NCBI GenBank assembly: GCA_008632985.1
Contig: QPGO01000359.1
Location: 1 to 41,332 of the forward strand
DNA from: Psammoneis japonica
Taxonomy: Eukaryota
Length of the DNA stretch: 41,332 bases
Direction: 5' to 3'
In this document: piece after piece, positions 1,210 through 41,332 of the stretch
How positions within the stretch are numbered: position 1 is the stretch's first letter
How the letters are laid out: each line of letters begins with the position of its first letter
Notes under the pieces: generated by a model
Databases searched by the model: none
What the model was told of the DNA's origin: nothing
Seen by the model: the letters and a program-made list of their open reading frames with translations, nothing else
Program-made: the position numbers and the translations under genes

Positions 1210-3330
1210 AACCATGTCCGGTGCCCAACCTGCTGTGGACGTTGCAGAGGACAGCTCACATGATGACAATGATGCAAATCATGCGAACCAAGGATCAGCT
1301 TTGGATGTGTGACAGAGAATCTGACAATGACGTCAGCATGCAAAAACCAGAGCAGAAGCTTGTTGGTGTGCACCATGCATTGGACATCATCCATGCGTCT
1401 TTTGTGGTCTTGACAAAGATTGGTCTGCTCCCATGATGTTTTCCGTCAGTGTCGTCCCTTCCAAAAATGTCCCACCATCCCATTTCATGGACACCAAAAT
1501 CAGCGATTGCCTTCTTGGCAAAGACGGGCCTGTCAGTGTTCTTCACAGACATGCACATGTCTGCTTGGACACAATGAAGCACCCCCCGCTGCCCACCACT
1601 GTAAAGCCTTTCTTGAAGCACAGCACAAGCTGCGCAGCTTTGTTTTGCAGGACTTCCGACAATGTTCGACATGTGGTGGCTTCAAGGCAATTTCCAATGG
1701 TGGTGGCCGCATTGTCTGTTCCAGCCCCAGCTTTCTCATGCACTGTTGTAAACCCAAAAGATGCAGTGCAACAGTTCCCTCAACATCAAGTTGGAAAACA
1801 TCCCTTCGTGATGTGATCGCCGGCGGAACAACCGCAAACAAGGCCACAAGAACATCATCCTTGACGCCGACAGCAGCAGGCAACCAAGGCACTGAATGTT
1901 GAGGATGCGTGTGGTTGGAACATTTGCATCCAAGCAAATGCTTTTGGGCATTTCTTCAAGTGTGGCACTGGCCATGGTTTCCATTGCAACTGCCACAAAC
2001 GACTTTTAGAAGAACTCACACAGAAAATTCGTCACCTCAATTCATCCACCCTGGTGTCTGTGAAACACATGAGAAAGGGTCACTTGGGGGCAGGCCATGT
2101 GCGCCACTGCATTCTTGCCAATGAGGAATGCTTCCTGTTGAGGTTGCAGGTTTGTTGCATCATGCAACAGTGAGATGAGGAACAGTTCACCCCATCCTTG
2201 CCACTGTCAGAAAATGCAGATCTCGACAATGGTGGCATCCTGGAGCTGCAGAGGTTTTTTCAGAGTCATCAAGACACAGAACACTCTTCAATTGCAAGTG
2301 GAGCTAATGCCAAGCAGACACCCACCCAAGAAAGAAACCTGCATGTTCAGTCATCATTGCTTTTCAACAAAGGTCACGTTGACCAAGAATGGGAGATCTC
2401 CAGAACCTCGAAGAACTTTGTTCCGAGGCACTTGACCAGTGCAGGCAAGAGAGGGAAGCTACGCAGCTTGGTCTCAATGACAACTTGTTCATTGGTGCTG
2501 CATGGACACTCAAGGGCAAGGGTCAGGACTCTGCTCAATGATGTGACAGAGACTTGTGAATCATTCACTCACACACACAAGCCCCTGACAAAAACTCCAT
2601 CATCCGATGCCAGTGCGGACAACTTTTGAATGCCAGATCAGTTGAAACATGAATGTTTGAATCTTTTTTAGTGACATGAGCCCCCTTTTTGCACCTGCCT
2701 CAGCTTGCCTGCTCAACCCAAATGCCATGTCAGTTCAAAACAAGCCAGAACATTGAGTTGAACAACTCAAAATTAATCTCTTGTCCTGGCTGAATTTTGA
2801 TCTTCTTCCAAGGGGAGGCAGAATGATGTTCTGATGATCAACAACAAGCAACTGGTGCAGCACAGAGGCCAGCCAACCGTGCTCTTGCCCACCTTCCAAA
2901 AATCCACTGAACCAAACAATGTGACAAAGCTGGCTGCATTATTTCCCCAGGTCACACATCAGACAGCTCTGATGAACAAACCCGACAAAAACATGCATTC
3001 AAGAAGTTTTCCAAATTTTTGATTGTGTGATGACTGCCCTCTGTTGCTGAAGAACTTCTCCTCTCTGAAATCTTTTGGAGTGACATGAGCCCCTTTTTGC
3101 ACCTGCCTCAGCTCAGCTCAGCTCAACCCAAATGCAGTGTCAGTTCAAACACAAGCCAGAACATTGAGTTGAACAACTCAAAATAAATCTTCTAAGGGGA
3201 GGCAGGATGACGTTCTGATGATCAACAACAAGCAACTGGCGCTGCACAGAGGCTGCCACCCACACAAGCATGGGATGGCAACATGAAAGGCATGTCCTTT
3301 GCGGAGGGAAAATCACAGTGCCTCAATGAA
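1210..3330. other. TpA- and CpG-depleted decayed domain A (unclassified repeat/pseudogene DNA)
   Basis: About 9 TA dinucleotides seen by eye in ~2.1 kb. The ORF fragments are Cys/His-rich and lack Tyr. The flanks have normal TA content. Confidence 0.8.
2670..3253 (+). repeat. Direct repeat, ~175-200 bp (2670-2870 vs 3079-3253)
   Basis: Shared gtgacatgagccc...gcacctgcctcagct...aagccagaacattgagttgaacaactcaaaa...ggggaggca...tgatgatcaacaacaagcaactgg. Confidence 0.85.
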
Positions 3331-3485
3331 AATGGTTTACACGGGGATTGTGATGGATATGATGCTGATAGAAATATTCTCATGCAGCTACATCATTCCT
3401 TTAGCTCTACTCATCTCGCAACAATTGAATTCAATGTAGTTCTATGCAAATTCTAAACCACTGCTTCCATTCACGGCGCCTCCTT

Positions 3486-4901
3486 CTATTCTACACCTTC
3501 CTGCTCTTGTTGCTCCCACGGAAAGTTATCCTTCAACCCTTGCCAGCAAGACATATAATTGACATCACGATACTCACAGTCCAACACTCGAGGATTAAGC
3601 TTGAGCAAATGAGACGTTTCAAACATAAAAGCCAATCCACCTGCAAATTTCGTTGGCTTGGAACAATCCTCGGCAATGGCCTTTTCATACGTGGTGGAGT
3701 CGGGTCCGTGCGGAGTCATGGTCAAGTGAAGCGACGCCCCGCCAGCTACAAATCCCTCCTTGGCATCGTATTTGCCGTGAATCAAACCCATAAATTCACT
3801 CATGGTGTTGCGATGAAACCACGGTGGACGAAAGGTATCATCGTCGGTCGCCATGATGCGGTGCGGAAAAATGACAAAGTCCGCCAGAGCCGTGCCCGTT
3901 TCATTGCCGACGCACGTCAGGACGGTGTAAATGCTGGGATCTAAATGATCGTACGTGACGGAGTTGACGGCACAAAACTTTTCCAAGTCATACTTAAAGG
4001 GCAAATAATTGCCATGCCACGCCACCACATTGTAGGGAGAATGGTTTGCATGACGGACAAACAACTGCCCTCCGTACTTGTTGAGAACGGTGCACGGTTG
4101 GTGATAGTCTTGCTTGTTTTGAACAAACGAGGCCTGAGGATATAGAAAATCACGAGCATTGGCCAATCCATTGGAACCAATCGGACCCAGCTCGGGCAAT
4201 TGAAAGTGGCCCTTGTATACTTCCAACACATATCCGCGAGCAAACAATGTTTCGTCATCTTGTTGCTTTGCAACGTTGAACACAATACCCCGTGGAATGA
4301 CACATACTTCTTTTGGGCTCACTTTTAAAATTCCCATTTCGGTTGTAATCTTGAGAGAACCCTGCTGGGGTACAATGAGAAAGTCACCGTCGGAATTGTA
4401 AAAGTGCGTATCGACCATGTCGTTGTTAAAACAATACATGGAAATGGCCAATCCGTCCTTGGTCATGGCGTCCCCACTTGACGCCATGGTTACCATACCC
4501 GACACAAAGTCCTTGTTGGGTTCTGCCGGCATGGGACTCCAACGAAGGGGTGATGGATTGAGTACAAACTCGTCCGGGCTGACACCACCAAAGAACTTTG
4601 GATAATCCGAGGATACGACGGCATCAGCCTCTTTGAAATCATCCACACACACCACACTGGGTTGAATACGATAGAGCCATGTTCGGCGATTGACAGCACG
4701 GGGACATGTAAAGGCTGTGCCACTCAACTGTTCCGTGTAGAGATTGTACGGGACGTGACGAGGATTGTTGCGGCCTTGCGGCAAGGCACCGTCAATAGCT
4801 TCCGATTCGAAGGAATTGCCAAAGCCAGCGTGATACTCGACAATAGTCTTTGTACGAGTTTCCTGTTGCGTCGTATCGGGTGTTGACGAGATGGGTGTCA
4901 T
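3486..4901 (-). CDS. HGD: Homogentisate 1,2-dioxygenase
   Basis: Motifs GFGNSFESEA..GALPQGRNNP, LYTEQLSGTAFT, WLYRIQPSV, LPELGPIGSNGLAN, VAWHGNY, DHLDPSIYTVLT, FRPPWFHRN, MTPHGPD, LAFMFET. First ATG at 4901; no introns. Confidence 0.96.
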   Translation of the reverse strand: MTPISSTPDTTQQETRTKTIVEYHAGFGNSFESEAIDGALPQGRNNPRHVPYNLYTEQLSGTAFTCPRAVNRRTWLYRIQPSVVCVDDFKEADAVVSSDYPKFFGGVSPDEFVLNPSPLRWSPMPAEPNKDFVSGMVTMASSGDAMTKDGLAISMYCFNNDMVDTHFYNSDGDFLIVPQQGSLKITTEMGILKVSPKEVCVIPRGIVFNVAKQQDDETLFARGYVLEVYKGHFQLPELGPIGSNGLANARDFLYPQASFVQNKQDYHQPCTVLNKYGGQLFVRHANHSPYNVVAWHGNYLPFKYDLEKFCAVNSVTYDHLDPSIYTVLTCVGNETGTALADFVIFPHRIMATDDDTFRPPWFHRNTMSEFMGLIHGKYDAKEGFVAGGASLHLTMTPHGPDSTTYEKAIAEDCSKPTKFAGGLAFMFETSHLLKLNPRVLDCEYRDVNYMSCWQGLKDNFPWEQQEQEGVE

Positions 4902-5192
4902 GGTTGGCAAGAAGCAATCGTATGATGGGATGACAGTATGATGGGATGACAGTGAGAATGTTCTGTTTCCACCGTCTTGACGGGATTCACCTGACAGCTC
5001 TCTCGGAGGGAGATTCCGAATTTCAAAAATTGCGCAAAATCGCGCGAAAATGGCGGGAAAAGTCGACACGTCATCAAACCGCGACCACGCACCGGACCGA
5101 CGCCACTTTTTTTTCAAGGCGACACTTTCGTTTTTTTGTTGCAGAAAAGAGGTAACAGCTTTCGCAGTTGTGTGAAACGAAAAGTCGACAAC

Positions 5193-6161
5193 ATGGCTGC
5201 ATCAACGGCAAAGCAAGATGGCTCTTTGATGCACAGTATTCGTTGCTTTATCGGCATGTGCATAGCCACGACATTTTGTGTTGTGTATTATTTTGCACCC
5301 GCCTACATAGTCACGGCATTGGTGTCGTTGTTGTGGTATCGATCCTATCTCTACGCCATGCCCCTGATTATCTCCATTATTTTGCCCCCAATTGCATGTC
5401 CCAATTTATTAAAATACCTGTCTCCCATGGCGGATTATTTTGATTTCCAAGAAGAATTCCACGACTTTACCGACGATCAATTCCGAAAGAATCTCGCTCA
5501 GGGCAAAAAGTACATTTTTGCCTTTCAACCACACGGTGTCCTTTCGCTCTGCGGTATGACGGCCATTACGCAGTGCCCTCCGGATGTTTGTAGAGTGAAA
5601 ACGGCAGTAGCACGTGTCTTGCTTCAAGTACCCATTCTCAAGCACGTCATGGGAATTTACGGTCTGATTGATGCGTCTAAACCCAGCTTGATTCGGCACT
5701 TTACTAAGAATACAGGAGTTGATGCTTGTTTGGTCTTGTACGTGGGTGGAATTGCCGAATTGTTTAAATCGAGTCGAAAGGAAGAACGGCTCTTTCTCAA
5801 GAGCCGCAAAGGCTTCATCAAGCTGGCATTGTCCCTACAAGATGTCGACATTGTGCCGTGCTACTTGTTTGGCAACACGTCCGCTCTGACCGTCATGAAG
5901 CACGGGCTGCTCGCGTCGGCGAGTCGAAAGTTGCAAATGTCCTTGACGTACTTCTGGGGACGGTACTATCTTCCCATTCCACGAAACGACAAGATGCTCT
6001 ATGCTCGGGGAAAGCCGCTGGGACTGCCGTACATTGAGAACCCAACCGACAAGGACATTAATGAATGGCACGACAAGTATTGCAAAGAAGTATCACGCAT
6101 TTTTGACCAGCACAAGGAGAAACTACCCATGTACAAGCACAAGCAATTGTATATTGATTAA
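5193..6161 (+). CDS. DGAT2: Diacylglycerol acyltransferase type 2 (DGAT2/MOGAT family)
   Basis: N-terminal TM segments, DYF, FQPHGV (HPHG variant), YVGGIAE, RKGFIKLAL, VPCYLFG, GKPL. ATG at 5193. Confidence 0.9.
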   Translation: MAASTAKQDGSLMHSIRCFIGMCIATTFCVVYYFAPAYIVTALVSLLWYRSYLYAMPLIISIILPPIACPNLLKYLSPMADYFDFQEEFHDFTDDQFRKNLAQGKKYIFAFQPHGVLSLCGMTAITQCPPDVCRVKTAVARVLLQVPILKHVMGIYGLIDASKPSLIRHFTKNTGVDACLVLYVGGIAELFKSSRKEERLFLKSRKGFIKLALSLQDVDIVPCYLFGNTSALTVMKHGLLASASRKLQMSLTYFWGRYYLPIPRNDKMLYARGKPLGLPYIENPTDKDINEWHDKYCKEVSRIFDQHKEKLPMYKHKQLYID

Positions 6162-7194: not shown

Positions 7195-7843
7195 CTACGC
7201 AAACTTCTTGACGGTCGGTAGAATGGCAGTTTCCAAATCGAGTTCAGAATGATCCGTGGCATTGATATGAATACCGACTCCCATCAAGGCCGATTTCAAA
7301 GCCTCTTTGGAACCACTGTAAAGCATTTTGGGACGAACCGGCGCCGTGTCTGGATTCCACGTGATGAAAACTAGTTTCGACGTTGGCCTTCCGTCATCGG
7401 TCTCAAATTCCAAATCAATAATGCCATATCGACAATCATTTTCCGGGAGTTCGGCACAAAAATCGTCATAGGTCTTGGAACGGTCGCCCTGCTTTTCAAT
7501 CACAATCGTCTTCTTGTCCTTGATGTGATAAATAAAGTAGCGGAGCTTGTATTCACCACGCTGGAGTTTGAATTCATTAAAAGCATGAACGAGTTGATCG
7601 TCCACCGTGACTCCTGTCGACTGTAATCATGGGGAAGCGAGAAAGGTGAGTTTTTGTGCGTATCATGCCGTACAGCGTGGCTTCGGTATCAACAGCGCGT
7701 AGAAACTACGTGACATCCAACAGCAGACAGACACGCTTGCTCTCGACAACATAACAGACCATGGTGAAGTGACTGACAATTTCAATCTCGACAACAATCA
7801 CTCAACAGTCCATAACATCACTCGACACTGTCGTTCGTACCAT
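7195..7843 (-). CDS. Actin-depolymerising factor / cofilin
   Basis: Exon 1 is the ATG only (7843-7841, then GTACGA), intron 7840-7621, exon 2 7620-7195: STGVTVDD...CRYGIID...KLVFITWNPDTAPVRPKMLYSGSK...INATD. An intron right after the ATG is typical of ADF genes. An alternative ATG|GT exists at ~7762. Confidence 0.93.
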
Positions 7844-8279
7844 GGTTATTTACTTGATTGGTTATGCAGCGACAACAACAACAACGTGTGACTGAACCGG
7901 CGGCGTTGTGAAACGAGCTTGCAAGCGCGCGGGTTCCGATGAGAAATGATTCGTGCGTGTAAAGCCACGTTGATTTTGTACTGGATCTTGGATTCATGAA
8001 CGTTATTGGACCGTTAATTCATGGCATTGCTTCGCGCACTTCAATCGCGCATTGGCATGCGCGTTCGCGCATGCAAAGATCTGACGTTTTTTGCCGCCGA
8101 CATCCGACATGCACATCACCATGACGAAGCCCATGATATGAAGAAGCTCTTGCAACAGAAAACAACAATGGCAGAGCAGCGCTTGTTGATCAATGAATAA
8201 AAAGAGAGCAGCCATGGAGCAAGCGCACATCATGTCTTGATCGACGGGCCCCAGTGCGAATTCAACCAAAAACTGCAGC

Positions 8280-9326
8280 ATGGGGGAACACAACGAAACC
8301 ACCTTGTTGCGTGCACTTCAATCTCACCAGTCACTCCAGGAGATCCAGACCTTGATTCAGAACCACACGGATCCTTCCAAAGTTGTGAAAAACAAAACGA
8401 ACGAAGGGCCTTTTCCATGTGCATGCTTTGAGGCTCCATGGATGTGGGGAGCTGTCTGCCACTTCATGCTGCATTGATCTACAATCCATCACTGCCCATG
8501 TTTCAGCATTTGCTGAGCATTTGTCCATGAGACATTTGAGCCAAGGACCAGATTGGGTGGAGTCTGTTGCGCACAGCTTGCAGCAGCACCTGCGAGCCGA
8601 TGGAATCCGCGCTCACAGAGAGCACTCTTGAAGTTCACCCTGAAAGTGCAAGAGAGTCAGACAAATGCAGAACCCTTCTGCTTCACATGTGTGCCCCGTG
8701 GTTGGATGAACATGTTGCAAAGCTTTTGATGGATTCATTTCCTGCAGGCACCAGTCATCAAGAGATGCGCTGGGAGACTTGCCTTTGCATTGGGCCATGA
8801 GGAGCCGCCGTGGCTGTTTGTTCATGCCTGTGGCATCAGTCAAGTTGCTTGCAGAAAAGCATCCCCAAGCAGTCTCTGTGAAAAACACACAAAACAAGAC
8901 CCCTCTCAACCTTGCTCAAGATGGAAATGAGATGTTGTGAGCGACACTCTCGCAAGCTGTCTTCAAGATCTTTAGAGACAACAATGTGCTGCAAATGTGA
9001 AATGGACCTGCTTTGCGTCAGAAATGCCAATCATCCCATTTGTTGGGTTCATGGCCACTGCACTGTTCTGGCTTGTGCTGAAGAAATGGAGCTCTGAAAG
9101 AGTGCCGTCCAATGAGATGGATCATCAGCAAGGTGTCACACTGAGTGCCAATGCCAACAAGCGTTGTCCCTGTCATCAACACAGTCTTGGCCACACGGAC
9201 CACCGCCAGACACGACTCTTCAGCTTTTACCAATGGCAGCTTCTGGTTCTTCTCACTTGCCAAGATCTTGTTGGAGCTCTGCATTCCTGCCAAGATGTCT
9301 TCCTCTTTTGCACACTTTTCAGGTGA
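8280..9326 (+). pseudogene. Ankyrin-repeat protein pseudogene
   Basis: Frames give GSCLPLHAALIYNPS..LLSICP*DI*AKDQIGWSLL, ESDKCRTLLLH, DALGDLPLHWAM and KLLAEKHPQAVSVKNTQNKTPLNLA (ankyrin TPLH-type motifs). Contains TGA stops (probably from CGA) and frameshifts. Confidence 0.75.
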
Positions 9327-10063
9327 TTTAACGTGTGGCCAATGTGTGCAAGAGACAAGAAAAAGATGACAAAGCGCGATTGCAAGCGGCTTGAGAGAAT
9401 GGATTGAAAAAGGAGCAATGGTGGTGGGTGGCTTGTGTTGTTTAACAAGAGATTGTGCTTTGTGTTGAAACACCTGCATCCCTTGTTAAAGGCATGGGCC
9501 GTGCACTCATTTTGTGTGTGAGAGACGATGTGGGAAAAACAGGAGGCACCAGCCAAATCCAATGGAAAGTTGTTGACCATCATGCTTCTGTGATTGTGTT
9601 GTTTGGGCTGGCTTTGGTGTGCAGCCGTGCTTTCACCACAGCAGAATGTGCGCTGGCAGTGTCCATTGAAATTTTGCAGTCTCCTGCTCTGGAAAAAAGG
9701 GTTGCACCTTTTGCGCCTTGGGGTGGGCAACAGCATTTCCACTGCTGTTGCAGAAAAGGCCTTGTCACACTTGTGCTGCAAAGAAAATGAGTTGAGTGTG
9801 AGGAGAGAACGGCTCGTGCAGAAGAACAGAGCATCTGCTGCCAGAGGCTGTCAACAGGTGCATGCAAAGAATGGGCTTTGGTGGAAAGGAAAAGACACAC
9901 GGTGTGTTTTGTTGGCTTGTTGTGGGCAATTTGCAAATCACAAGCACCAAGTGGCATCAATGGATGCCACATCGCATGCAACGTGCTCTGTTGCGTGTGC
10001 ATCCCAAACTCCTTGAATTCAGCAACAAGTGGTTTGTGCTGCCACATTGTTTCGGAACAACGT

Positions 10064-11000
10064 TCATTTCTTGAAAACATCTGGTTTGGCCTTGACCACA
10101 TGAAAAAGAAGGTTGGCATTGTGGCCAACCTGTGCCAGCACCTTGATCCAAATGCCATTGGGAACCAAATCACAGTGCAACAACCGCAGTGTGTCTCGCA
10201 ACATCTTCTGGTCCCTTTCAATCTCATGGAACAGCTCCTCACCAATGCCATGAAACAAATGGTGAGAAACAACCTTTGCACTTTATTTCGCGTCATCTGC
10301 TGTGGGGCTGCCTCCCCCTTGTCTCCGCAAGAGGTGCGCGACACACTGACAAATCTGATTTTGTCATTTTGTGCAATCATTTGTCCAAGGGCTCTTGCAC
10401 CGCCATCTCCAATGTTGTTGCCATTGAGAAAAAGGCCATCAATGCATGAGTTTTCATGCAAGCTCCTGGCCAGCACTTTGGCTTGTCCCTTTTGCCCAGT
10501 GCAACAATTTGACAACCGCAAAGTTTGCGATTTTTCAGCAACATTTTTCCAGTGCATTCTGCACCTTGACAGCCAAATGCATTTCCAACAAGGAAGACAC
10601 TCTTGATTGCAGCTCAAACAATTTGCACAAAGACTTGACACCCTCTGGGCCAATGCAGCGCCATTGAGCATGAGTGTCTCCAGCCAAAAAAGAAAAGGGA
10701 TGACTTTTGACAAATGCTTGACACCATCATCCCCCATCCCATTGCAACTCAAATCAAGGACATGCAGCTTTGAGAGCAACAAAAGGGCTCGAGACAAATC
10801 GATCATGCCCTCTGAACCAAAGTTGCAATCAATCAACAAAAGATGTGTCAATTTGCAAAAGGATGGAAAAACTTGGCACAACAGCTGGACACCTTTGGCG
10901 CTGATTTCTTTGTTCCAGATGTGGACGCAGCTGACCCCTGCCGGGTTTGTTTTGGCCAACACTGCTTGCAAGCTCTCCAGCTTCCTTGCTGCAATTGTGG
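10064..11000 (-). pseudogene. RNI-like (NLRC3-type) leucine-rich-repeat protein pseudogene
   Basis: LTHLLLIDCNFGSEG, LHVLDLSCNGMGDDGVKHLS, LFLNGNNIGDGGARALGQM. A frameshifted C-terminus VPNGIWIKVLAQV..NLLFHVVKAKP resembles diatom LRR family ends. Confidence 0.8.
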
Positions 11001-30530: not shown

Positions 30531-30561
30531 TGGTTGAGCATCCTAATCTGATGTTTGCGCA

Positions 30562-33500
30562 CTACATTGACATTTCTGCGTGCTGTTGCTGAGAAAAATG
30601 CGTGGCGCTTCTCTCCTTCATGAGTCTTGCCAAGGCTTCGCAGCCTTCTGGGACCTTGCATTTTCGCAGGTCCTTGCTCAGTGGCTTTCGCATGAGCAGC
30701 CCTTCTCTGGTCTTTACTCTGGAGAGCACAACATGCACCCAATTCTGAGTGTAGCTCCAAGAGAGTGCAAACAACTGCGGGACTCCACTCCCTTGCAGTT
30801 TGTGCCCTGCAGTGGCGTTGTTGATGACAAACGGCAGCTGGGTTGCCTTCAGTTGGAAAGTGTGCCTTTGTTTGTCGCCTTCTTCTAAAGTTGGGCTGGG
30901 CTTGGTGATGCAAGCCCTGAAAGCATTTGTTTTTGGCTCAACTAAAAACTTCGCGGGGTCGATGCTTTTGTTGCAGTGTTCCAACACAACGTGGTCCACC
31001 TGACTGGCAAGTGCAGCAGGAGTGCCAATGTTGTTGTCTAAAGTCACTGGTCTTGGTTCCTGTCCTGGTTTGAGAACGACCTTGTCAACAGTGGCTTGCG
31101 TTCCATTTGCTTGACCGTTTGCCACATTTTTGTTGAAAGGTGTCATGACCCCGCATCTTCTGTAAATTCGTAAGACTGGATCCATTCTTCCTGATTGCAT
31201 GATGACGTCTCCTTCACCACAGTTGTTCCAGAAGCTGTTGCAAACCGGAAACGGTTGGCAGAGTCTCGTGCCATTCTGCACCTGCAAGTCGTCACTGAAA
31301 ATCAACATTGAGTCAAGGACATCTCCATCTCTTCTGTGCAGTGTTTCTGCTCTTTTTTTGAATGGGCCAGTGTCAATTGCATCTCTGTCCTCATTTGCGT
31401 GTGCAGCATGGCGGAGGTCACTGGGCAGATCATCTTCGTTCTGAACTGCTCGTTCGTTGATGTGCTCTGTGTCGTCAACTGCAATCTTGCCAGTGCGGAA
31501 TCTCTCAAGCAGTTTTCCCCATGATGGATCGTCTTTAAACCTGTGTGCACCACGAAGTTCTATGTGGCAGTTGATCCACTCGTGAAACTCGGGACATGCA
31601 TCTTTGTGTGGTGGTTTCACTCCTTTTCCGACTGGTTCTAGTTGCCTGAGGTCACCTGCGAAAACAATGTTGATGCCACCGCACGGCTTGCTCAATTCGC
31701 TCTTCAATGCTGTCAAATTCTCATGGAGTTTTTCTAGCTCTCTCTTGCTTGCAAAAGAAATCTCGTCTACCACCGAAAGTTTCGTGTCTGACCATGCTTC
31801 AATTTGCTCTTCGGTTGTTTGCTTTCTTCTCATGAGGCATGCAACTCGGTGGATTGTGTCCCCTTTGAGAACAGTCACAGCCACTCCGGTCAGTGCAGTC
31901 ATTCTGATTGTGCTTGTTGTGAAATGGCTGCTCAACAAGCAAGCAATGCTCTCTTCCGCATTCCACGACGAGGTCTGTTGTGGTTGATTTGCCACTTCCA
32001 CCTGCACCATGTAAAAAACACACAAGTTGCAACGTTCTGCGTCTTTGCACTTCCACGAGTTTCTTCAATTGGCGAAGGTTTGTTACAAATTCGTGTCTGC
32101 TGTTTCTCCTGTTGAGTCCATTGCGTGACGTCTCGTCTTGAAGAGCATCTTGGCAGCAAGTGAGCACAAAGGTTCCTGCCAGAATTTCAAAGGCACGCTG
32201 CTGTTGCCTGTCCAGTCTTGCTTTCCTAGCCCAGTCTACGACACTTGCTGCAGATCCGTTTGCTTGACGTACATCGACGTGTTCTTCCAAACCTGTTGTG
32301 TCCTCAAACGACCTTCTTGTTCTTTGCGTTCTAGTCAGCATCACTCGAACAATGTCGTCTCTTGACAGAGGTCTGCTGTGGATGTGTTGTTGCACTCCTT
32401 CATTCTGGTCTTCCTCGTCGGTGTCATCGCCGCCCTCTAGATTCTCAAAAAGTTGTCGTTCATTGACCTGGCTTTCCTCGTTTGGTGGGTCAGTGTGCAT
32501 GTCTGCCAAGCATTTGCAACCACCCATGTGTGAACCTTTCTGTCTTGCACGTTCACCGCTCAAATGCGCAGGAACAACTGCTTGGTCGCTCAACCCAATG
32601 TCATCATCTTCTGGCTGCTCTGCCATTTCTTCCAAGAGTGCATCCAGCAGTTGACCCTGAATGGCGCCTGAAAGACCTTCTTCCTCGTCACTTTCGCAAC
32701 AGTCAAACGCAACGTCAGCAGGTCTAAATTGCTCCGTCTTTCTTTGCAGATCGTCAGATGTGCTTTTGAGATGAAGGCAGTTGGACTTGGCATCCTGCAG
32801 GTTCTGCAAGAAGTTCAAGTTTTCCTCTGCAACAACACCGGCCACTGCGGAGAGTTGGAATTCACGCAGGCATGTGTGGGTTGTTGGTTTGAGCTCCGTC
32901 ATTGTTCTGTGAGGCGCAAACAAGGCCAATGCCAACTTGCAGCACAATTCTTTGTCCAGTGTTGTTGGTTGCTGTGGATCCATGAGGCAACTGCCAAACT
33001 TGGCTGCATCAGGAAAATCACACTGAAGTGCTTTTGACAATCGCGGTTGCTGTCGCTGTCTGACACCTTGAAGAAACTTGTTCTTCGTTGAATCACAAGA
33101 TGGGTGCCTGTGCGCTCTGTCATCGAACATCATCATGCCATGTTCGTTTTTCCTTGTGTTGCAAAGAACTTCGCATTCACTAAAAAACGCAAACGGACCA
33201 AGATTCTCACAGTGCTGTTGGACGACATGGGTGGTGCAAGGCCTGGCATTGGAAGAACGGTGCATCGCCAAAATGGGCTACAGTCACAGACACTTCGTCT
33301 CTTTCTAGTGTGCTGACAATGTCTTTCAAGGGGCACCATGCGGTCAAATGAGATTCGATGAAACGGCCTCCGTTCCTTGTCATGTAAGACGCGAGTGGTG
33401 GTCCAATGACGTTCGTCTTGTCATGCGAGCAAGCACCCCACATGAGACGTCTGATTGCTTCTGATGCATCAGATGCGTGTTTCCGCAATTCCGTCACCAT

Positions 33501-36215
33501 CCTGTTTGTAGTTTGAAGCACTTCGTCGTACGATGCAGTGTCATCTTTCTGGGTGTCTTTTAGGATGTGCTCAATCGTGTGTTGAGTGGACGGTCCAGGC
33601 ATCAACAAAGCAATGTTTGTGTTGCATGTCAGTTTTGATCTGCTTGTTGCGGGGCACGACACGTTTTGAAAAGCATCGCACTTTCTCCTCTTCAGAACAA
33701 CTTCCTTCACATGCCGATGCGCAAAAGTTCCATCCCAGCTGAACCACTTTGTCTGAGTGTCATCTGCATTCCTTGTCAAATTATTTGGACACGAAGCAGC
33801 TGGTTGCCTGTGATGGCAGTCACCTGGTTTGAGCTCCTCTCGTTTCCTTTTCCTTGACTGCGTGTCCAGTTCCTCGTGTGGGGTTTTTTTGTGCATTTTA
33901 CGCAACTCTGCGCATTTGGGAAAACACGACTTCGCAACGTGCATGTGATGGTTGTAAGCTGTGTCCGGCACATGTGCCTCTGTTGTCCCTTGCGGACCAC
34001 TTCACTGGCATTGCACACACACTGCTTTTGGTTGCTTTGCATGGTCATCTGGATGGCGAGTCAGGCCAGGTGCATGGTGCCGTGACTGCAAAAAGCTTTC
34101 TACAAACTCGACGTTTGTCCAGCACTTGGTGCAGTGACGACAACAAGCAAACATTCTGTTCTTCGACTGCTGGCCGTCTTCATGCCTCAGGTTTCTTAGC
34201 TGTTGGTCATCTGCTGCTTTTGGAGAGGCACGACACATTTTTGGCACTGTGCAGTCATGATCGAATGCTTCACACAACGCGTCAGTGCTGAAGTCCTCGC
34301 CACAGATTAATTCCGTGCTGCAGATCTTCTGAACCATGTTGGCAAGGCACTCAGCACCTTCGCGTCGGATCTGTCTCATTGGCGAATGCAGTTTCTCTCT
34401 TGCATTGTTGGTCGATGCGAACCAGATCTGCATGTGCCCGTGTGCTGTCAGACGTCCCTGCTCCTCAACTGCGGCTAAAAATGCGGCTGGCCTGCCAATG
34501 CAGAAGTTAAAGTTTTCTCTTGGTTGGTCAGCACTCAGATCCCAACCCACTGCCTCTTCTGTTGCAATGTCAAACAAGCACTCGAATGCAAAGGCTGTTA
34601 GACCGGGAAACTTTGGACGCAGTTCATTGCGTTGCTCAGCCCTGCTGGCAAGAATTTCATCCGTCAGTTGTGTCACGTCTTCGTTTGGGTCCAGGATGAC
34701 ACCCGAGCACAGTTGTGCAAGAAACGAATTTGCATCGTCCGGACTGACTGTTAAGAAAATGCCACCCCAACCAAAATGATGCTGATGAGTTTCGGCGTTT
34801 CTCCTCATTTTCTTTGCTGCTTCGTCACTGTGTGGCAGAGACGCAGATGCAACGTTGAGTGCGCACAAAAAGTGGTGCCCGAGTCCACAATCTCTTCTCT
34901 CGCCCAAGTTGCGATCACAAACAGCTCTGTCCACATCGTCCGCTGTTGGTTCGTTTGCAAACTGTGCAGCCTGATTCTTGTCCCTGACTTTCCACCCTGC
35001 GCTCTGTGGCATCCTTTGCTTCATTGTCAAGTTGCAGCATGTTAACACGAAGAGCTGCTGGTGGAAGTGAGGCTGGGAAATCCGTGCTGAGTGGTCGGCA
35101 TGGTGTGCAAGGTTGGTGCCATCTGCAAGACTTCCGTCTTTCTTCATTCTCGTCTCATTGATTCCTCCTCTGCCAAAAGGAAACTGCAGCAGACACACGT
35201 CAATGAAGTTGTTGCCTTTGAAATCACTCGCAGATTCTTTAGACAACTGTGCTTGTGCCTCTAAATCAAATCCGTTGGCAGCAGCTTCGTGTGCAAGATC
35301 TTTGAAGCAGTCCAGGTTGCACTGACCACCGGTCGCAGGAGACATGGTTCCATCAGGAAAGCAAGTGTGAAATGACTCTGAGGTCTCAACATTCGCATTT
35401 TCTCCTTCTTCTTTGCTGGTGCTGTCGACAAGTGCGGGATTTCGCAGATTGCGCCCAACTTCGTCTAGATTTGTCTGTTGGTGCACCCACTCTTGGTCAT
35501 GGCACAACAGCCACTCCATTGCCCTTGGCATGCAGTGCGCTCCAATTCTGTTCTTTGAATGTGCAAGTTGTCTTTGCTCCGGAGTCATCTTTCCAGTCAT
35601 CAGTGCAATCACATTCTGATGTAAACTCAGTGCGTCGAAGTGCACAACAGTTCTTACGATGCTTTGCATCTTGACTTTGTAGCACGCCAGACTTCCCTGA
35701 AGCTTCTTCTGTTTGCCGCCAAGGCAACTGAAGCAGTGTCCACATGTTTTCACTGGTGTGAGCATTGCCAACTCCACTTCGGTTAGAGACAACAGTTCGT
35801 GTGGCGGGGTGCCAAAACAGCAGTTGTTCGCTGTCACGTACATTGGCACAACGGCTCTTCCCAGGCTTCTTCGGCATTCGCTGCAGCAAGTGAATCCGTC
35901 GATGCATCGTCTGTCTTCCTGCACTGCGTGTTGGGCGCAGGGAGAAAGCAGCAGGTCTTTGATCCAATCAGCATCTTCATGCCCCACAGTGCAGCAGGAC
36001 TTGAGACGATCAGATGCGCTGTTCCAGTCTGAAGGGGTGAGCAAGTTTCTTGCTGATTCCAATGTTTCAAGCGGCAAGCAGCAAACTTCTCCAGGTTTCA
36101 GCAGAACGTCACAGACCAAACATGCGTGTGGTCTAAATTCTCCGTCTCCATGCAGACAAAGCATCTCAAACTTTCCATTGATTGTGCTGCAAACACGGGA
36201 GTTGGCCTCGTCCAT
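30562..36215 (-). mobile_element. Helitron Rep (HUH)-PIF1 helicase gene, pseudogenised
   Basis: Rep: LLQFPFGRGG, IFLTVSPDD, VEEQGRLTAHGHMQIW (HUH), HTIEHILK (degraded YxxKY), VIGPPLASYM. Helicase: GAGGSGKST, TALTGVA..TIH, VDEIS, GGINIVFAGDLRQLEPV, HRFKDD, ANGT, HKLQG, VHVVLSRVKT. In-frame TGA at 34002 and frameshifts near 33210 and 31920. Confidence 0.9.
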
Positions 36216-36329
36216 TTTAACTCAAGCTGACACTTCAACTCAACAAATTTCAAGAAGTCACTCAGTGAAAACAGTTGTTTTTTCAGTGCGCAGTTGTTTT
36301 TTCGGTGCGATCACCGTGAAGCTGCGATC

Positions 36330-36965
36330 GGTGCCATCCAATCACCACAGCGATGTGTGTTTTCTCACCACCTGCAGCACTGCGACTGGTGTCGTCCAGT
36401 CACCACAGTGGTTCTGTCCAGTTGATCAACGAACCGCGTCGGTGCCATCTGTTCACCGCAGCACTGTGTCGTCTTCTCACAACCTGTGCAATCAGGTTGC
36501 TGTGAGTGCTGTGACTGGTGCTGTCCAGTCACCGCAGCCGAGTCAATCAGTTGCTTGACGAACTGCGTCGGTGCCACCCGATCACTGCAGCATTGTGTCG
36601 TGTTCTCACAACCTGTGCGATCAGGTCTCTGTGAGAGCTGCGACTGGTGTCGTCCAGTCACCGCAGCTGAGCTTGTGCGTCATCTCACAACCTGCGTTAC
36701 GAGGTGCAGTGCTGTGTTGTTTGCTCACAACCTGTGCAATCAGGTCGCTGTGAGAGCTGCGACTGGTGTCGTCCAGTCACCGCAGCCAAGTGAATTAGTT
36801 GCTTGACGAACTGCGTCGGTGCCATCTGATCACCGCAGCATTGTGTCGTGTTCTCACAACCTGTGCAATCAGGTCTCTGTGAGAGCTGCGACTGGTGTCG
36901 TCCAGTCACCGCAGCTGAGCTTGTGCGTTGTCTCACAACCTGCGTCACCAGGTCACTGTGAGAAC
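36330..36965. repeat. ~129-bp tandem repeat, ~5 copies, upstream of/at the 5' end of Helitron Rep
   Basis: g(c/t)gactggtg..gtccagtcacc(g/a)cag at ~36382, 36511, 36640, 36759 and 36888. Confidence 0.9.
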
Positions 36966-37157
36966 TGAGAACTGCGATCGGTGTGGCCCAATCACCGTAG
37001 TTGGATGCTTTTCGTTTCCCTTTGCGCAAAGGTTCTGTCACAAAAAAGTGAGACGAAAGTGTGCCTCTTTCACCTCGATGGAAGAGTGACGTGTGCGTTC
37101 CTCCCACGTCCTTCTTCGCACCAGACGTGCGACATCCCACTTAGTTTCATCGACGTT

Positions 37158-37258
37158 GAACATCCCATGGGACAAGATTTGGATCTTGTTCAAGTTGTTT
37201 TGACCATCTGCTCTGAACATTCCATGGGGCAAGATTTGGATCTTGTTCAAGTTGTTTC
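37158..37258. repeat. 57-bp tandem duplication
   Basis: gaacat(c/t)ccatggg(a/g)caagatttggatcttgttcaagttgttt occurs twice. Confidence 0.85.
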
Positions 37259-37802
37259 GGCAATCTTGGTGGTGGGCGCAGCTTTGCATGAATTCCGCAG
37301 AATTACGCTTTAACGAGTGGCGGGGCAGTTGAGCCAGTCGTGTGGCAACAACAACACGATTGACGTCATTCGTGTTTCCAAAGTGCGTGCGAATCCTCCA
37401 AATGGGTGATGGGCCCACCTTAGCCAACTGCCGGTGCAGTGGTGACAGCGATGGCGTCGACCGTTTGGCAACTAGATTTCGTGCGCGATGGCTGCGCGGC
37501 AGTGACGGCTGAAATGCACATGAAGCACGGACGGAATTGCACGTGATTTTACGCATTTTCAGCAAACTTGCTGCGACTTTGCGTGCTCCGATCCTTGCAC
37601 CTGTTTTGTTCAAATTGAGTCCACACACCACTTGCAAGTGCTGACACCTGGAAGGTCACCTTGTTGCAGTTCGACGTGTTTGGATCTAGTTGCTGACATT
37701 GCCAGTTCTCCTTGGCATGATGCACGCAGCTCTGCTGGGTCTTTCTTGGCACTTCTGAACGATCGCACTTTTTGTTCCCACAATTTCTCTCCGACTGATT
37801 CG

Positions 37803-38675
37803 ATGGCACGCAAAAGAAACACAATGACCTCCCCGGCTGCGAAAGCCAAAGTCGCCAAAACCAAACAGAAGAAGGCAAAGACGAAGTTTTCTGATGCTCT
37901 GTTGAAGAAACTGAGTCCGCCCCGCAAGACCAACGGCTTGACCGACGACGACCTTAAACCGGAAGACCACCTTGCCAAGCACGGGTTCAAGCTTTCCAAA
38001 TCCGCCAGTTCTGACGATGGCAGCCATTCCGACAAGGACGCCCTCCTGCGCTGCGCCACCGTCACTGTCGGCCGCAAGAAAGGCATCGTTTTTCGTCTCC
38101 AAGCCAAGAATCCCCTTTCAACCAATGTTTGGTCGGAGAAGGTTCTGTTTGACAACCTTCGCAGCAGGACTCCGTGGGTGGTTCAAGTCGGATTCCACCC
38201 TTGCGCTGGCAGGTGGGTTCACGAAGGCGAGTTGCAGACGAACGCCAAGAACTGCGCCGTGCGTCTCTTCTTCATCTTCCTCGAAGAAGTCCCAACCGAT
38301 GCCAAAGTGCGCGGCCTCGGGAAGTGCATTGCGAAGCAGCTCAACGATGACCCTGAGAACAACGCCAAGGTCTTCGTTGAAGACGACTTCTTCTGGATGA
38401 AGGATGCTGTTTGGTCCGAAGTGATCGGCAACGAGGCGGCGCTTGCCGAGCTTCAGAAGGAAGGTGGTCAGTTTCACATCGGTTGGTGCGCCCAAAACAA
38501 GAACTTGCTTCACAGTTGCTTCTACGAGGGGTCGTTGCCTGTGGAACTCTGTCATCTCATTGGAGCTCCGGCAGAAGAAGCTGGAGAAGAGGCCGACGAT
38601 GATGTCGAGCTCAACTGCGAAGTTGACCTGAACGTCGATGACGACTTGGTGCTTCAGGACAGGGACGAAGACTGA
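37803..38675 (+). CDS. Hypothetical element-borne protein (Lys-rich N-terminus, acidic C-terminus), TA-mutated
   Basis: Long ORF with gene-like codon usage, divergent from Helitron Rep. Only one Tyr, with Cys at Tyr-like positions (LLRCA, HPCAG, GKCIA). Followed by a T-tract. Confidence 0.55.
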   Translation: MARKRNTMTSPAAKAKVAKTKQKKAKTKFSDALLKKLSPPRKTNGLTDDDLKPEDHLAKHGFKLSKSASSDDGSHSDKDALLRCATVTVGRKKGIVFRLQAKNPLSTNVWSEKVLFDNLRSRTPWVVQVGFHPCAGRWVHEGELQTNAKNCAVRLFFIFLEEVPTDAKVRGLGKCIAKQLNDDPENNAKVFVEDDFFWMKDAVWSEVIGNEAALAELQKEGGQFHIGWCAQNKNLLHSCFYEGSLPVELCHLIGAPAEEAGEEADDDVELNCEVDLNVDDDLVLQDRDED

Positions 38676-38763
38676 GTTGTTTTTTTTTTTTGCCGGTGCA
38701 GTGTAAATTTGTAAATGTTTGGCAAACTGAGTGTCGATTGCAACTCAGCTTTCCTCTGTCTCT

Positions 38764-39807
38764 TCAAGCATGTGCCATCTCCGACGACAACTTGTCGTTG
38801 CCGCGAAGCAATGGCGAATTGAGTGGAGCAACCAGCGTGTGACGTCTAGCACAGTGACAGCAAAAAAACAGTTCAGTTGAGTTCTTAAGCAAAATTGGCT
38901 GTTTCGCGACGGGTGAACACTTCCGTTCCAAGTGTGTCAGAGTGGGACGTCGCATGTGCTGGCTGGTTGACTGAGAAGTCTCCTCTTTCTTGGTGCACTT
39001 GTGGAAGACGAGATGTTTCACGTCTCTGCTGTGCCACAAAAAGTCGCCATCATGGCAATCCGCCGTGAAGGACTCGCACATCCACTCTCCCGCGTGCGAC
39101 GCGAACAGCGGATCTAGCGCCACCACCACGGTCCCAGCAGGACACAACTTCGAAAGCATCGCCTCTGCCTTCTGCTGTGTGTTCTTGTCGTTGACCACAC
39201 GGGAGTTGCAGTTGTTGAAGAACACCTTGAGTCCTTTCTTTTTCCACAAAGGAGCCAGCCTCTCGTCCAAAAATGACTTGTTGATCAACTCCAACCCGCA
39301 GTTTGAGCGAAGGCCAGCATGATGAGCCCAACGTACAGCCTCTTGGTGACGATTGTGGTTGGCCTCGATGCTCACCATGGTGCAACGGCGACGAAGTAAC
39401 TTGAGCCCGATGCTGGGTCCGGCAACTCCCCCGCCCATGTCGACAGATGTGTCGCAGGTGTGATTCACGCCAAGAAGGCGTTCGTTCAAAAACACTTTGC
39501 TGCTCAAAGCGAAGCCAACTTCGCCGCTGTGCGAAGATCCGCTTCCGTCTCCGGAGACACGCCTGCTCTGGAACGCGGAGTCCGGAGCCATTTGAAGACA
39601 AAACTCCCTGACACTTCTGCAATGATGGTTCATCGCATCCAACCTTGTGGCAACGTCAACCTTGCTTGCAGCGGGTTCGACCAGACGTCGCGTTTCCAAA
39701 CCAAACTGTGATGTGCGCAGAATGCGTAAATTTACCGTCGCGCCCTCTGTGCACGTGAAATTTTCAAACGCAGCGTGCTGCCTCTGCCTGCATGTGGAGC
39801 GATGCAT
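38764..39807 (-). CDS. DOT1-like class I SAM-dependent methyltransferase (hypermutated, probably inactive)
   Basis: HSGEV (cf. YGE), VDMGGGVAG (SAM motif I), VSIEAN (cf. GIE), NKSFL, VFFNNCN (cf. VxFxNNF), GTVVVALDPL (cf. GxRIVSxxP). ORF ends may be extended by loss of TAA/TAG. Confidence 0.6.
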   Translation of the reverse strand: MHRSTCRQRQHAAFENFTCTEGATVNLRILRTSQFGLETRRLVEPAASKVDVATRLDAMNHHCRSVREFCLQMAPDSAFQSRRVSGDGSGSSHSGEVGFALSSKVFLNERLLGVNHTCDTSVDMGGGVAGPSIGLKLLRRRCTMVSIEANHNRHQEAVRWAHHAGLRSNCGLELINKSFLDERLAPLWKKKGLKVFFNNCNSRVVNDKNTQQKAEAMLSKLCPAGTVVVALDPLFASHAGEWMCESFTADCHDGDFLWHSRDVKHLVFHKCTKKEETSQSTSQHMRRPTLTHLERKCSPVAKQPILLKNSTELFFCCHCARRHTLVAPLNSPLLRGNDKLSSEMAHA

Positions 39808-40208
39808 GAAGTCATTTTAAACAGACATGTGGACGCGTTGAAACAATGAGACACCTCCAGGCGATAAAATTTGTTTTGAATCTTGGCCTGCTTCTCATCA
39901 TTGCTGCACTTGTGTGTCCGTGCAATTCAAACGCATGAGCTGGCACGGCACGCAACGCACTTCTACGCGAGAACTCGCACTGAGGTTGCCGTGGGATGAT
40001 CCTCCCTCCGCGGAGACAAAAACAACGCGACAACACTTCCGTCATCACATTTTGAAACACATTTCAAATTGAGACACACCATGTCGCAACTGCCTCGTGC
40101 CTCGCTGCGTCGTCCCACCAACCACAAGCACTTGTCGCGATCGAGTTACAGCCGGTCTCGACAGTGTGGGGGTTTGGGACGTGCAGCTCGCAGCCTGACA
40201 ACAAGCAA

Positions 40209-40405
40209 ACACTTCTCGCGATTAGGTTTCGACCCCACTCCCCTGGAGTCCGCCGGTCCCTGTCAACAGAGTTTTGCTTTGGGTGCTCTTGAGGCAACGG
40301 AAAGCAGACACATCTCTCGATTGGGTTTTGACCCCACTCCCCTGGAGTCTGCCAGTCCCTGTCGACAGAGTTCTGCTTTGGGCACTGTTGAGACGACAGT
40401 GACAG
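40209..40405. repeat. 99-bp tandem duplication
   Basis: gaccccactcccctggagtc..gtccctgtc.acagagtt.tgctttggg at ~40232 and ~40331; minus strand gives CPKQNSVDRD..TPGEWG and HPKQNSVDRD..TPGEWG. Confidence 0.9.
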
Positions 40406-41332
40406 TGTCAAGCAGCGGAACATTTGCCGGTGAGTTCGCACACACGTTCTCTGCGAACACCGCATCGTCAATGCGCACCAGGACGTGCGAGAACGTGTTG
40501 AGGGCTCAACCGCCACTTCGCAAGGCCCACCGCAGCCGCAGGCGAATCCGCAGCCGCGCCAGTGGGAAAACATCCAAGATTGCTCGCCTCATTCCACTCG
40601 CACCGTGCGCCACTGAGAGTCTCTCCATGCACTGTGTAGCTGGCCGCACTCCAGTTTGTGACAGCGACCACACTCAGCCTGCACCACCTTGTCTTGCTGA
40701 CATTGACTTTGCCGAATTGGCTCCTCTGGTCGTCTGTGACCCTGTGCTCAATCTGAAGCCTTTCTTTGGCTTGGACGGTTGCTGCTGCGACAACACCTGC
40801 ACCCTGCTGCCGCGTTCTGCTGTGGTGTTCAGCTCCCCCAACCCAGCAGAACCAGTTGCTCAGTGCCGAGTGCTCGAAGCACTAGAATGCTGCACCACCC
40901 AGTCCACCGTGCATGGCAAACAACGCGTTGCCTTCATGGAGATGGACAGGAGCAAGTGTTCCACGATTGGCCTGGCTGCCACGAGAGATGCTCGAATTTC
41001 TTGCAAGCAGCCTGGCACAGCCGACCAACACACTCACCACCTCACCAGACTTCTTTCACGCATGGAGCACCTTGTCAATGAGTGCGTGGACTGTGCCATC
41101 CTTGAGGGCATCGCTCGTGTCAAAAAGTTTCACAACTGGAAATCCCTGGTGCAGTCAGATGGCATTTTCTCCTCTCTGGCGGCTGGGCGCAATGTCTTCC
41201 TCAACGCCCATCGGGACCAGGACTTCTTCCTGTCAGCAGTCACCGTGGTGGGAGTCCCTCCGTCCGGCAGCCACACCATGAATGACGGGATTGTGGCGCA
41301 CTTCTGCTTCCCTGCCGAAGGCATCTCCGTTG

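Follow-up and report, generated by a model that had tools for sequence, protein, structure and literature searches.

Near-complete TpA loss in three domains of a Psammoneis japonica contig points to TpA-targeted hypermutation of mobile and duplicated DNA

We analyzed a stretch of 41,332 nucleotides from the diatom Psammoneis japonica (assembly GCA_008632985.1, contig QPGO01000359.1, positions 1-41,332, forward strand; hereafter the window) in which three domains, D1 to D3, are nearly devoid of the dinucleotide TpA (TA) and rich in TG and CA. We read these domains, with a probability of about 0.8, as nearly the end state of a locally targeted mutational process at the level of DNA that changes TpA to TpG or CpA, a process of the kind reported in the chlorarachniophyte Bigelowiella natans, which would act by adenine deamination and would serve genome defence. 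A first-pass annotation of the same DNA had proposed a TpA to TpG/CpA mutator that acts on transposon-type and duplicated DNA, and this core claim is supported by the relatives of the affected sequences, by the codons that were replaced and by other copies in the same sample, and it withstands the refuting checks that the annotation named. The annotation had also stated that it knew of no description of the process in diatoms. A 2026 preprint on B. natans reports this kind of process (Mettrop et al., bioRxiv 10.64898/2026.01.13.699255), and full-text literature searches found no report of TpA hypermutation for diatoms. New here are the diatom host, the targets, the near-complete conversion and a rule for the flanking bases.

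Results

TpA content of the three domains

Composition was measured in two ways, in 500-bp sliding windows and as symmetrised dinucleotide observed/expected (O/E) ratios per domain, with the intervening gene DNA as the host yardstick (546 TA per 13,367 bp). The three TA-poor, TG/CA-rich domains noticed in the first-pass annotation are borne out by both measures. TA was seen 10 times in D1 against 87 expected, 14 times in D2 against 363 expected and 115 times in D3 against 625 expected (Poisson log10 P = −25, −133 and −138), and the O/E ratios follow suit (Table 1). In the sliding windows, TA O/E is 0.07-0.18 over positions 1001-3000, 0.00-0.18 over 8001-17000 and 0.00-0.31 over 26001-41000, compared with 0.34-1.19 in the intervening host-gene DNA. 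Conversion is fullest in D2, which sits between a cofilin gene and a chaperonin (CCT) gene and has lost 96% of its TA. The TA-free run of about 2.9 kb that had been noticed near 10290-13220 proved exact: after a TA at 10284 none follows until 13227, and the 2,941 bp in between would be expected to contain 120. The start of D3 had been placed at about 25700; the domain itself was recovered, and in place of a sharp step TA falls off gradually from about 25.7 to 26.04 kb. Over the domains as a whole, completeness of conversion is 82-100%, and the GC fraction is 0.48-0.54.

Table 1. Symmetrised O/E ratios of dinucleotides in host-gene DNA and in the TA-depleted domains.
Dinucleotide	Host	D1+D2	D3
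TA	0.60	0.04	0.12
TG/CA	1.18	1.81	1.50
CG	1.07	0.23	0.79
AA/TT	1.19	1.21	1.26
AT	0.96	0.84	0.76
GC	1.08	1.30	1.15

The strongly lost dinucleotides are TA and, separately, CG; AT dips slightly and AA/TT is unchanged. The loss of CpG, strong in D1 and D2 and mild in D3, corrects the first-pass annotation, and in 500-bp windows it reaches O/E values of 0.16-0.46 in D1 and 0.04-0.36 in D2, where TG/CA O/E is 1.6-2.25. Because TA stands at 0.12 in D3 while CpG is still at 0.79, the two kinds of decay are separable, and that of TA is the faster.

Replaced residues and codons

Expected Tyr residues had been noticed to read His or Cys in the recognisable proteins of the domains, and in both proteins with usable relatives, a Helitron protein and an exonuclease-family protein in D3, this is borne out quantitatively. 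The Helitron (Table 2) carries Rep (HUH/Y2) and a Pif1-type helicase in one protein, as seen from its Pfam families and from its collinearity with a metagenome homologue, L005. The 1,696-aa RepHel open reading frame (ORF) of L005 aligns by tblastn in the segments 36182-33204, 33208-31931 and 31959-31177, separated by frameshifts at 33204-33208 and 31924-31926.

Compared with 10 metagenome proteins that are 41-47% identical to the window ORF, the Helitron keeps none of nine conserved Tyr columns (5 Cys, 2 His, 1 Thr, 1 Phe), and conserved columns change from Val to Ala (9/21) and from Ile to Thr (3/9). For the codons we threaded 10 of the 12 related metagenome loci, leaving out the shortest two, L010 and L012. 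The replacements are those expected from TA to CA or TG. Ala in place of Val is encoded by GCA six times out of seven, and Thr in place of Ile by ACA four times out of four; Tyr changes to Cys six times and to His three times; and the replacements seen once each (Leu by Pro, Ser or Ala, Val by Pro and Ile by Pro) all have a codon ending in CA. Read from these end states, the changes are NTA to NCA and TAY to TGY or CAY, that is, A to G and T to C at TpA. In the pairwise alignment with L005 alone, its 56 Tyr residues are matched by Tyr in 4 places, by Cys in 22, by His in 14, by Phe in 7 and by another residue in 9.

The relatives themselves carry Tyr and ordinary TA. TA O/E is 0.24-0.69 across all 12 related Helitron loci, and the Tyr content of the homologues is 2.3-4.8%, apart from two proteins (P0002 and P0005) described below. 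As the relatives keep TA and Tyr, the family is TA-normal and the window copy is the derived one. We considered locus L011 as a partly converted relative and rejected it, as its 10 conserved Tyr columns give one Cys and no His.

The loss of Tyr extends to motif residues. The L005 segment QYAFKY, which we take to be the two-tyrosine catalytic motif of the Helitron Rep, aligns with QHTIEH in the window, so that both Tyr of Y..KY read His, and in an alignment with a Pif1 structure the residues YVALSR of the structure stand opposite HVVLSR. With its motif Tyr reading His and two frameshifts, the window copy is dead. A search among solved structures gave no match for the N-terminal ORF of the Helitron.

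In the exonuclease-family protein, the 19 conserved Tyr columns within the TA-poor part read 9 His, 8 Cys and 1 Trp with one Tyr kept, and three of five are kept in the TA-normal part.

Other copies in the same sample

Sequencing run X1 contains 87% of sampled words from positions 7600-17500; none of the runs listed as containing the sequence is of RNA. On positions 25000-36300 we placed 2,274 contigs of this run at a likeness of at least 80%; the depth of contigs in this comparison is not a copy number. Summed contig depth is 303-533 over 25000-29146 and rises to 1,567-7,802 over 29147-36300, and the Helitron and the exonuclease-family gene are both shown to be multi-copy. At 31924/31925 the other copies are one base shorter, so that the window Helitron has a private 1-bp insertion there.

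The placed contigs differ from the window at 1,245 variant places, of which 40 were inspected, 17 of them inside D3. At six of these 17, the window has CA or TG opposite a TA in all other contigs, and the reverse was seen at none. Six more have CG in other contigs opposite TG or CA in the window, and one has CG in the window. These variant places point to a change that occurred in place.

Duplicated sequences within the domains are informative in another way. Among 129 double mismatches between them, CA opposite TG is the commonest (n = 27; next class, n = 6). Such mismatches are what the independent resolution of one ancestral YpR step would give, and an ancestral CG gives the same result, so their count does not separate TA decay from CG decay.

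The edge of D3 within a gene

The left edge of D3 falls inside the exonuclease-family gene, whose N-terminal two thirds are hypermutated and whose C-terminal third is not. There are 16 TA in positions 25000-25550, eight in the 485 bp of 25551-26035 and one in the 1,365 bp of 26036-27400. Near the edge, the conserved Tyr positions read His at 26044 and 25984, Tyr at 25981, Cys at 25774 and Tyr again at 25762 and 25249. A gene half converted argues for a regional process on the chromosome and against an element that arrived already changed, and an edge inside the gene argues against a tract strictly bounded by repeat homology.

The gene belongs to a family with eight metagenome homologues, six of which (1406-1532 aa) span 92-98% of the query; the homologues carry PF01612. 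The protein has its 3'-5' exonuclease domain in the centre, is highly conserved over the C-terminal half and ends in a tail rich in Cys and His; the family probably represents the protein of a mobile element that has not been described. A pattern search of viral contigs gave 57 matches for the family, none of which was confirmed. A diverged contig of run X1 with a depth of 289 spans positions 25184-28628 of the gene. Position 25356 is the single N of the window, where one diverged run X1 contig has three additional letters. Tandem repeats with units of about 70 bp and 92-94% identity lie just outside the ORF (24258-24542).

Strands, flanking bases and stop codons

Runs tests on the order of TG and CA in five sub-domains gave z values of −1.83 to +0.83, and in 300-bp bins overdispersion is 0.5-1.1, that is, none. 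Strand-coordinated tracts of TG or CA, as made by APOBEC-like enzymes, were not found in the five sub-domains. The two strands are thus shown to be hit independently, each TA irrespective of its neighbours.

The 141 TA that survive in the domains are not a random sample. Sites of the form RTAY (ATAT, ATAC/GTAT and GTAC) number 8 against 179 in host DNA, and sites of the form YTAR (CTAG, TTAA and CTAA/TTAG) number 74 against 74 (odds ratio 0.045, Fisher p = 2e-23). With the TA-normal relatives as the baseline, the window Helitron has 4 RTAY and 39 YTAR compared with 531 and 342 (p = 8e-12). The residual TA of D1 and D2, the older domains, consists of no RTAY, 11 mixed and 15 YTAR sites; with so few left, YTAR is slower to change and not immune. 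Judged by the host baseline, RTA is lost chiefly to RCA and CTA chiefly to CTG. The survivors point to a preferred target of 5'-TAY-3' for adenine, which equals 5'-RTA-3' for thymine.

The same dinucleotide rule reshapes the stop codons. TAA turns into TGA or CAA and TAG into TGG or CAG, and the process cannot make an in-frame stop. TAA and TAG together fall from 16.5 per 1000 positions in host DNA to 1.7 in D1 and D2 and 5.4 in D3, and the figure for all stops drops from 35.8 to about 26. Since TAA and TAG are removed and no stop can be created, the domains hold many long overlapping open frames, including the intact 1490-codon frame of the exonuclease family.

Contents of the domains and neighbouring genes

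The features of the window are collected in Table 2. D3 holds, besides the Helitron and the exonuclease-family gene, several further long open frames without a recognisable family. Among the ORFs at 36.3-41.3 kb, three have no Pfam match at E ≤ 10 and three more none at E ≤ 0.05. Tandem repeats with units of about 120-240 bp and 71-85% identity adjoin the Helitron (36322-36953).

In D1, three ORFs have no Pfam match and the content was not recognised; an internal repeat relates 2660-2869 to 3069-3253. The only Pfam family found across the ORFs of D1 and D2 is LRR_6, in a leucine-rich-repeat (LRR) ORF of D2 that has 0.0% Tyr, 6.8% Cys and 4.2% His and matches 3,753 library proteins (E ≤ 1e-3), most of them over many stretches. 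Two diverged tandem units in D2 are spaced at 2619-2694 and differ by 20 discordant CA/TG dinucleotides. (GA)n microsatellites occupy corresponding places of both units (13490-13511 and 16110-16130). D2 also contains homopolymers of 11-16 G or C, at 12526-12558, 12865-12889, 14295-14316 and 15331-15354, some as inverted pairs.

The genes between the domains had been reported to have normal TA and Tyr, and this was found for homogentisate 1,2-dioxygenase (HGD), diacylglycerol acyltransferase (DGAT), a ribosomal P protein (RPLP), cofilin and CCT. Within the 41 kb, depletion is limited to the three domains among these TA-normal genes, of which CCT lies about 0.8 kb to the right of D2. The HGD ORF is without an intron. 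Its best match in the protein collection has 68% identity, and its best named matches are diatoms (52-60%). In a tree with one outgroup and a midpoint root, HGD of the window stands, with weak support (81/60), beside pennate-diatom sequences and apart from the well-supported Thalassiosirales.

Table 2. Features of the window, with positions counted from its first letter.
Feature	Position	Strand	Remarks
TA-depleted domain 1 (D1)	1207..3337		
HGD	3486..5201	-	Pfam HgmA_N 2e-109, HgmA_C 1e-61; Tyr 3.8%, 54 TA
DGAT	4995..6161	+	Pfam DAGAT 1.3e-33; Tyr 5.1%, 46 TA
Cofilin/ADF	7195..7626	-	Pfam Cofilin_ADF 1.2e-37; about 0.6 kb from left edge of D2
TA-depleted domain 2 (D2)	8199..17077		
LRR (RNI/LRR_6 type) ORF, 546 aa	9580..11220	-	in D2; Pfam LRR_6 1.3e-6
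TA-free stretch	10286..13226		
Pair of diverged tandem units, about 2.65 kb each	13100..17140 (13100-14470, 15740-17140)		in D2; self-BLAST 65-74% identity
CCT/TCP-1 chaperonin subunit	17897..19409	+	three exon-like ORFs; Pfam Cpn60_TCP1 1.5e-30, 1.7e-17, 1.3e-58
Exonuclease-family open frame, 1490 aa	24599..29071	-	multi-copy
Transition zone at left edge of D3	25700..26040		inside exonuclease-family gene
TA-depleted domain 3 (D3)	26036..41332		continues past window end
Segment of about tenfold higher summed contig depth	29147..36300		run X1, high-copy Helitron family; right limit is end of compared stretch
Helitron Rep/helicase coding region	31177..36182	-	Pfam Helitron_like_N, DUF6570, PIF1; three frames, two frameshifts
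444-aa open frame	40000..41331	+	no stop before window end; no recognised family; Tyr 0.2%

Tyr loss in metagenome Helitrons

Two of the 10 metagenome Helitron proteins have themselves lost Tyr. In P0002, 14 conserved Tyr columns read 8 Cys and 4 His with no Tyr left, and in P0005, 13 such columns read 6 His, 2 Cys and 3 Tyr. Both proteins are only 41-45% identical to the window copy, and their Tyr loss implies that the same TA-erasing process has acted on Helitrons of other environmental organisms.

Discussion

Proposed process

The process that we propose turns the A:T pairs of a TA step into G:C on both strands, so that TpA becomes TpG or CpA. Its targets are mobile and duplicated chromosomal DNA (here the high-copy Helitron, the multi-copy exonuclease-family gene, the LRR gene by the tandem units and unrecognised sequence), and adjacent single-copy host genes are spared. 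Proteins are ruined through Tyr to Cys or His, Ile to Thr or Met and Val to Ala while long frames persist, and ordinary CpG decay runs in parallel at a slower pace. By analogy, we take the process to be of the same kind as that seen in the mutation-accumulation lines of B. natans. It may consist of the enzymatic conversion of adenine to hypoxanthine in DNA, which would then be read as G, by a putative polynucleotide deaminase of the TadA/ADAT type that would be drawn to chromatin which is silenced or foreign, and its role would presumably be genome defence.

Several points weigh against this proposal. Two Tyr to Phe replacements and the one Val to Ala as GCC in the Helitron are unexplained by it. 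The differences between copies are not confined to TpA: seven of the 17 in-domain variant places are CpG-related and four belong to neither class, and the compared stretch has 900 transition and 331 transversion places. The sole run that contains the window sequence, X1, consists of contigs and is probably the source sample, so it is no independent platform. The split of outcomes by flank keeps its sign with the host baseline but varies in size with the baseline chosen, and the direct test of the TAY target in Tyr codons gives only a trend (after a purine, 10 His and 6 Cys; after a pyrimidine, 9 Cys and 3 His; p = 0.067). YTAR sites may in part have been re-created rather than spared. In most native substrates of eukaryotic ADAT2/3 the base 3' of A34 is a purine, so the TAY preference is not simply that of ADAT2/3. 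The pattern is described for 41 kb, and what sets the process off (repeat, foreignness or chromatin), which enzyme carries it out and its defensive role are inferences.

Alternative explanations

An actual analogue of repeat-induced point mutation (RIP), where homology sensing makes duplication the trigger and the tract is bounded by the repeat, seems to us unlikely. It would agree with the recognisable contents of the domains, all of which are multi-copy or of large families, as judged from the depth of the Helitron, the contig of depth 289, the tandem units and the LRR family. However, positions 25184-26040 of the exonuclease-family gene are covered by the paralogous contig yet keep TA, and the main target in B. 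natans is reported to be single-copy (Mettrop et al., bioRxiv 10.64898/2026.01.13.699255). The first-pass annotation had called the process RIP-like; mobile and duplicated DNA as the target is retained from that description, and a repeat-induced trigger is less certain, given the edge inside a repeated gene and the single-copy target in B. natans.

We give little credence to a modified thymine at RTA (e.g., 5-hydroxymethyl- or 5-formyl-uracil made through oxidation by an enzyme of the TET/JBP type) that miscodes or is misrepaired, giving T to C. Sequence cannot separate A to G from T to C on the opposite strand, and the RTA/TAY preference fits either. A weak and unconfirmed lead in its favour, toward an oxygenase of the TET/JBP type carried by a transposon, is the 444-aa frame at the end of the window, for which the nearest Atlas clusters are Tet_JBP, with a score of 0.91 at a level of recognition below the useful range. 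Against it, this frame has no Pfam or PDB match even at E ≤ 10, and its single-sequence structure model is unusable (predicted local distance difference test, pLDDT, 33.6). As it lies in mutated DNA and is itself Tyr-poor, it is unlikely to encode an active enzyme.

Very improbable, in our judgement, is a sequencing or assembly artefact in which a modified base of silenced DNA is misread, so that TA appears as TG or CA. The identity of run X1 as the probable source sample leaves room for it, but contigs of that same run read TA in sister copies of the same families at places where the window reads CA or TG. Other public data sets include two Helitron proteins in which Cys or His likewise takes the place of Tyr, the frameshifts and transversions are the ordinary decay of real DNA, and in B. 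natans the mutations of lines sequenced with Illumina are described as heritable (Mettrop et al., bioRxiv 10.64898/2026.01.13.699255).

Generic processes are just as hard to sustain. GC-biased gene conversion, WA to WG errors of Pol-eta and ADAR-type RNA editing followed by reverse transcription all yield A:T to G:C, and ADAR prefers a 5' U (Mettrop et al., bioRxiv 10.64898/2026.01.13.699255, Discussion). Composition speaks against them, since among dinucleotides made of A and T only TA is strongly lost, with AA/TT at 1.19-1.26 and AT going from 0.96 to 0.84 and 0.76. Because AA/TT is unchanged, a general drive from AT to GC and a WA motif are excluded, which disfavours the Pol-eta-like candidate named in the first-pass annotation. 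An ADAR route is further opposed by the even hits on both strands, by a Helitron that has no reverse-transcribed intermediate, and by a preferred 3' neighbour that is a pyrimidine here and not the G that ADAR favours.

That the elements arrived TA-poor, through a foreign or viral composition or through selection against TA, and were never mutated here is scarcely credible: some viruses and elements do have skewed dinucleotides, and the short related loci L010 and L011 have TA O/E of 0.24-0.25, but conserved and motif Tyr have been replaced, the relatives are TA-normal, the sample's other copies keep TA, one gene is half converted and the exonuclease family was not found in viral contigs.

Significance

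TpA-targeted hypermutation has been reported once before, for the integrated viruses of one chlorarachniophyte. The footprint in a diatom indicates that the process is more than a peculiarity of a single alga. Much of the marine phytoplankton may use it as a general route of genome defence, one that runs counter to the usual bias from GC to AT and to fungal RIP. Details that can be tested elsewhere are the TAY (= RTA) rule, the independence of the strands, the edge within a gene and a pace faster than that of CpG decay. There are practical consequences as well. Dead elements keep long open frames, so that gene callers will annotate Tyr-less proteins, and TA-free blocks can be used in any assembly for finding the targets and eventually the enzyme. 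As a speculation that we hold only tentatively, diatoms and chlorarachniophytes might share an old defence by A-to-I editing of DNA, in which an enzyme derived from TadA has kept the taste for T-A-Y of the anticodon loop and, aimed at silenced mobile DNA of the chromosome, removes TA from both strands until the transposases are dead, without ever making a stop codon; since the process also covers the LRR gene by the tandem units, it may be that it diversifies genes for repeat proteins.

Comparison with known systems

Fungal RIP resembles the process proposed here in the hypermutation of repeated or mobile DNA, in bounded blocks of skewed dinucleotides and in the dead transposases that it leaves. 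Its direction is the opposite one. RIP changes C to T mainly at CpA, makes TpA and stop codons and lowers GC, whereas in the window TpA is destroyed (O/E 0.04-0.12), GC goes up and TAA and TAG are nearly erased. Decay of 5-methylcytosine at CpG also yields TG and CA and is present in the window (CpG O/E 0.23 in D1 and D2), but it cannot remove TA. The AID/APOBEC system shares a deaminase-type hypermutation directed against mobile DNA; it changes C to U on single-stranded DNA in strand-coordinated clusters, in contrast to the A:T to G:C changes without strand clustering described here. The mutagenic motif of Pol-eta is WA to WG, with both TA and AA as targets, and the AA/TT ratio of the window is 1.19 in host DNA and 1.21 and 1.26 in the domains.

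Adenine deaminases of RNA offer the closest enzymatic parallel. In TadA, ADAT2/3, ADAR and the TAD-dependent editing of fungal mRNA, A is read as G and a 5' U or T is needed, as here. TadA, ADAT and ADAR act on RNA, whereas the Helitron and the gene array require a change at the level of DNA. The native site of TadA/ADAT is U33-A34, U33 preceding A34 in all tRNAs, and the bacterial TadA site is U-A-C-G in the anticodon loop, in agreement with the TAY preference of the window. ADAR and fungal mRNA editing favour a purine 3' of A, which in the case of ADAR is G. As a lead only, a TadA-type enzyme would fit TAY better than ADAT2/3 or ADAR. ADAR-type hyperediting through an RNA intermediate does not match the window, where a Helitron and an LRR gene are the targets and a 3' pyrimidine is preferred.

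The closest known system is that of B. natans, as described in the preprint of Mettrop et al. (bioRxiv 10.64898/2026.01.13.699255), the text of which makes no mention of diatoms, stramenopiles or Helitrons. According to that account, an integrated nucleocytoplasmic large DNA virus (NCLDV, 186 kb) and an integrated virophage (25 kb) took up 231 of the 302 new single-nucleotide mutations, 230 of the 231 being A>G or T>C, all on TpA, at a rate of about 6e-7 per site per generation in some lines only. The process as defined there includes raised, episodic de novo rates of about 1e-7 to 1e-6 per site per generation. The preprint further reports 124 TpA-poor, CpA+TpG-rich clusters enriched for domains of transposable elements, with transposase and reverse-transcriptase domains enriched in TpA-poor coding sequences, and it proposes an ADAT2-like protein as the enzyme (10.64898/2026.01.13.699255). 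By the measure used there for such clusters, D1 and D2 (0.04 for TpA and 1.81 for CpA+TpG) qualify, and D3 (0.12 and 1.50) is borderline in its second value, which many of its 500-bp windows exceed. The differences from the published account lie in the host and its targets, a chlorarachniophyte with integrated viruses there and a diatom with a Helitron, an exonuclease-family gene and an LRR gene here; in the evidence, which consists of observed de novo events there and of a footprint here; and in the extent of change, with a Rho of 0.45 for the NCLDV region and a near-complete conversion of 82-100% in the window. Neither a flank preference for TAY/RTA nor an edge that falls within a gene is described in the abstract, Results or Discussion of the preprint. 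Against these stand the same dinucleotide rule and the same direction, on both strands, in non-host DNA with normal flanks, a course toward GC that runs against the usual mutational bias, and the same TpA-poor, CpA+TpG-rich footprint associated with transposon domains.

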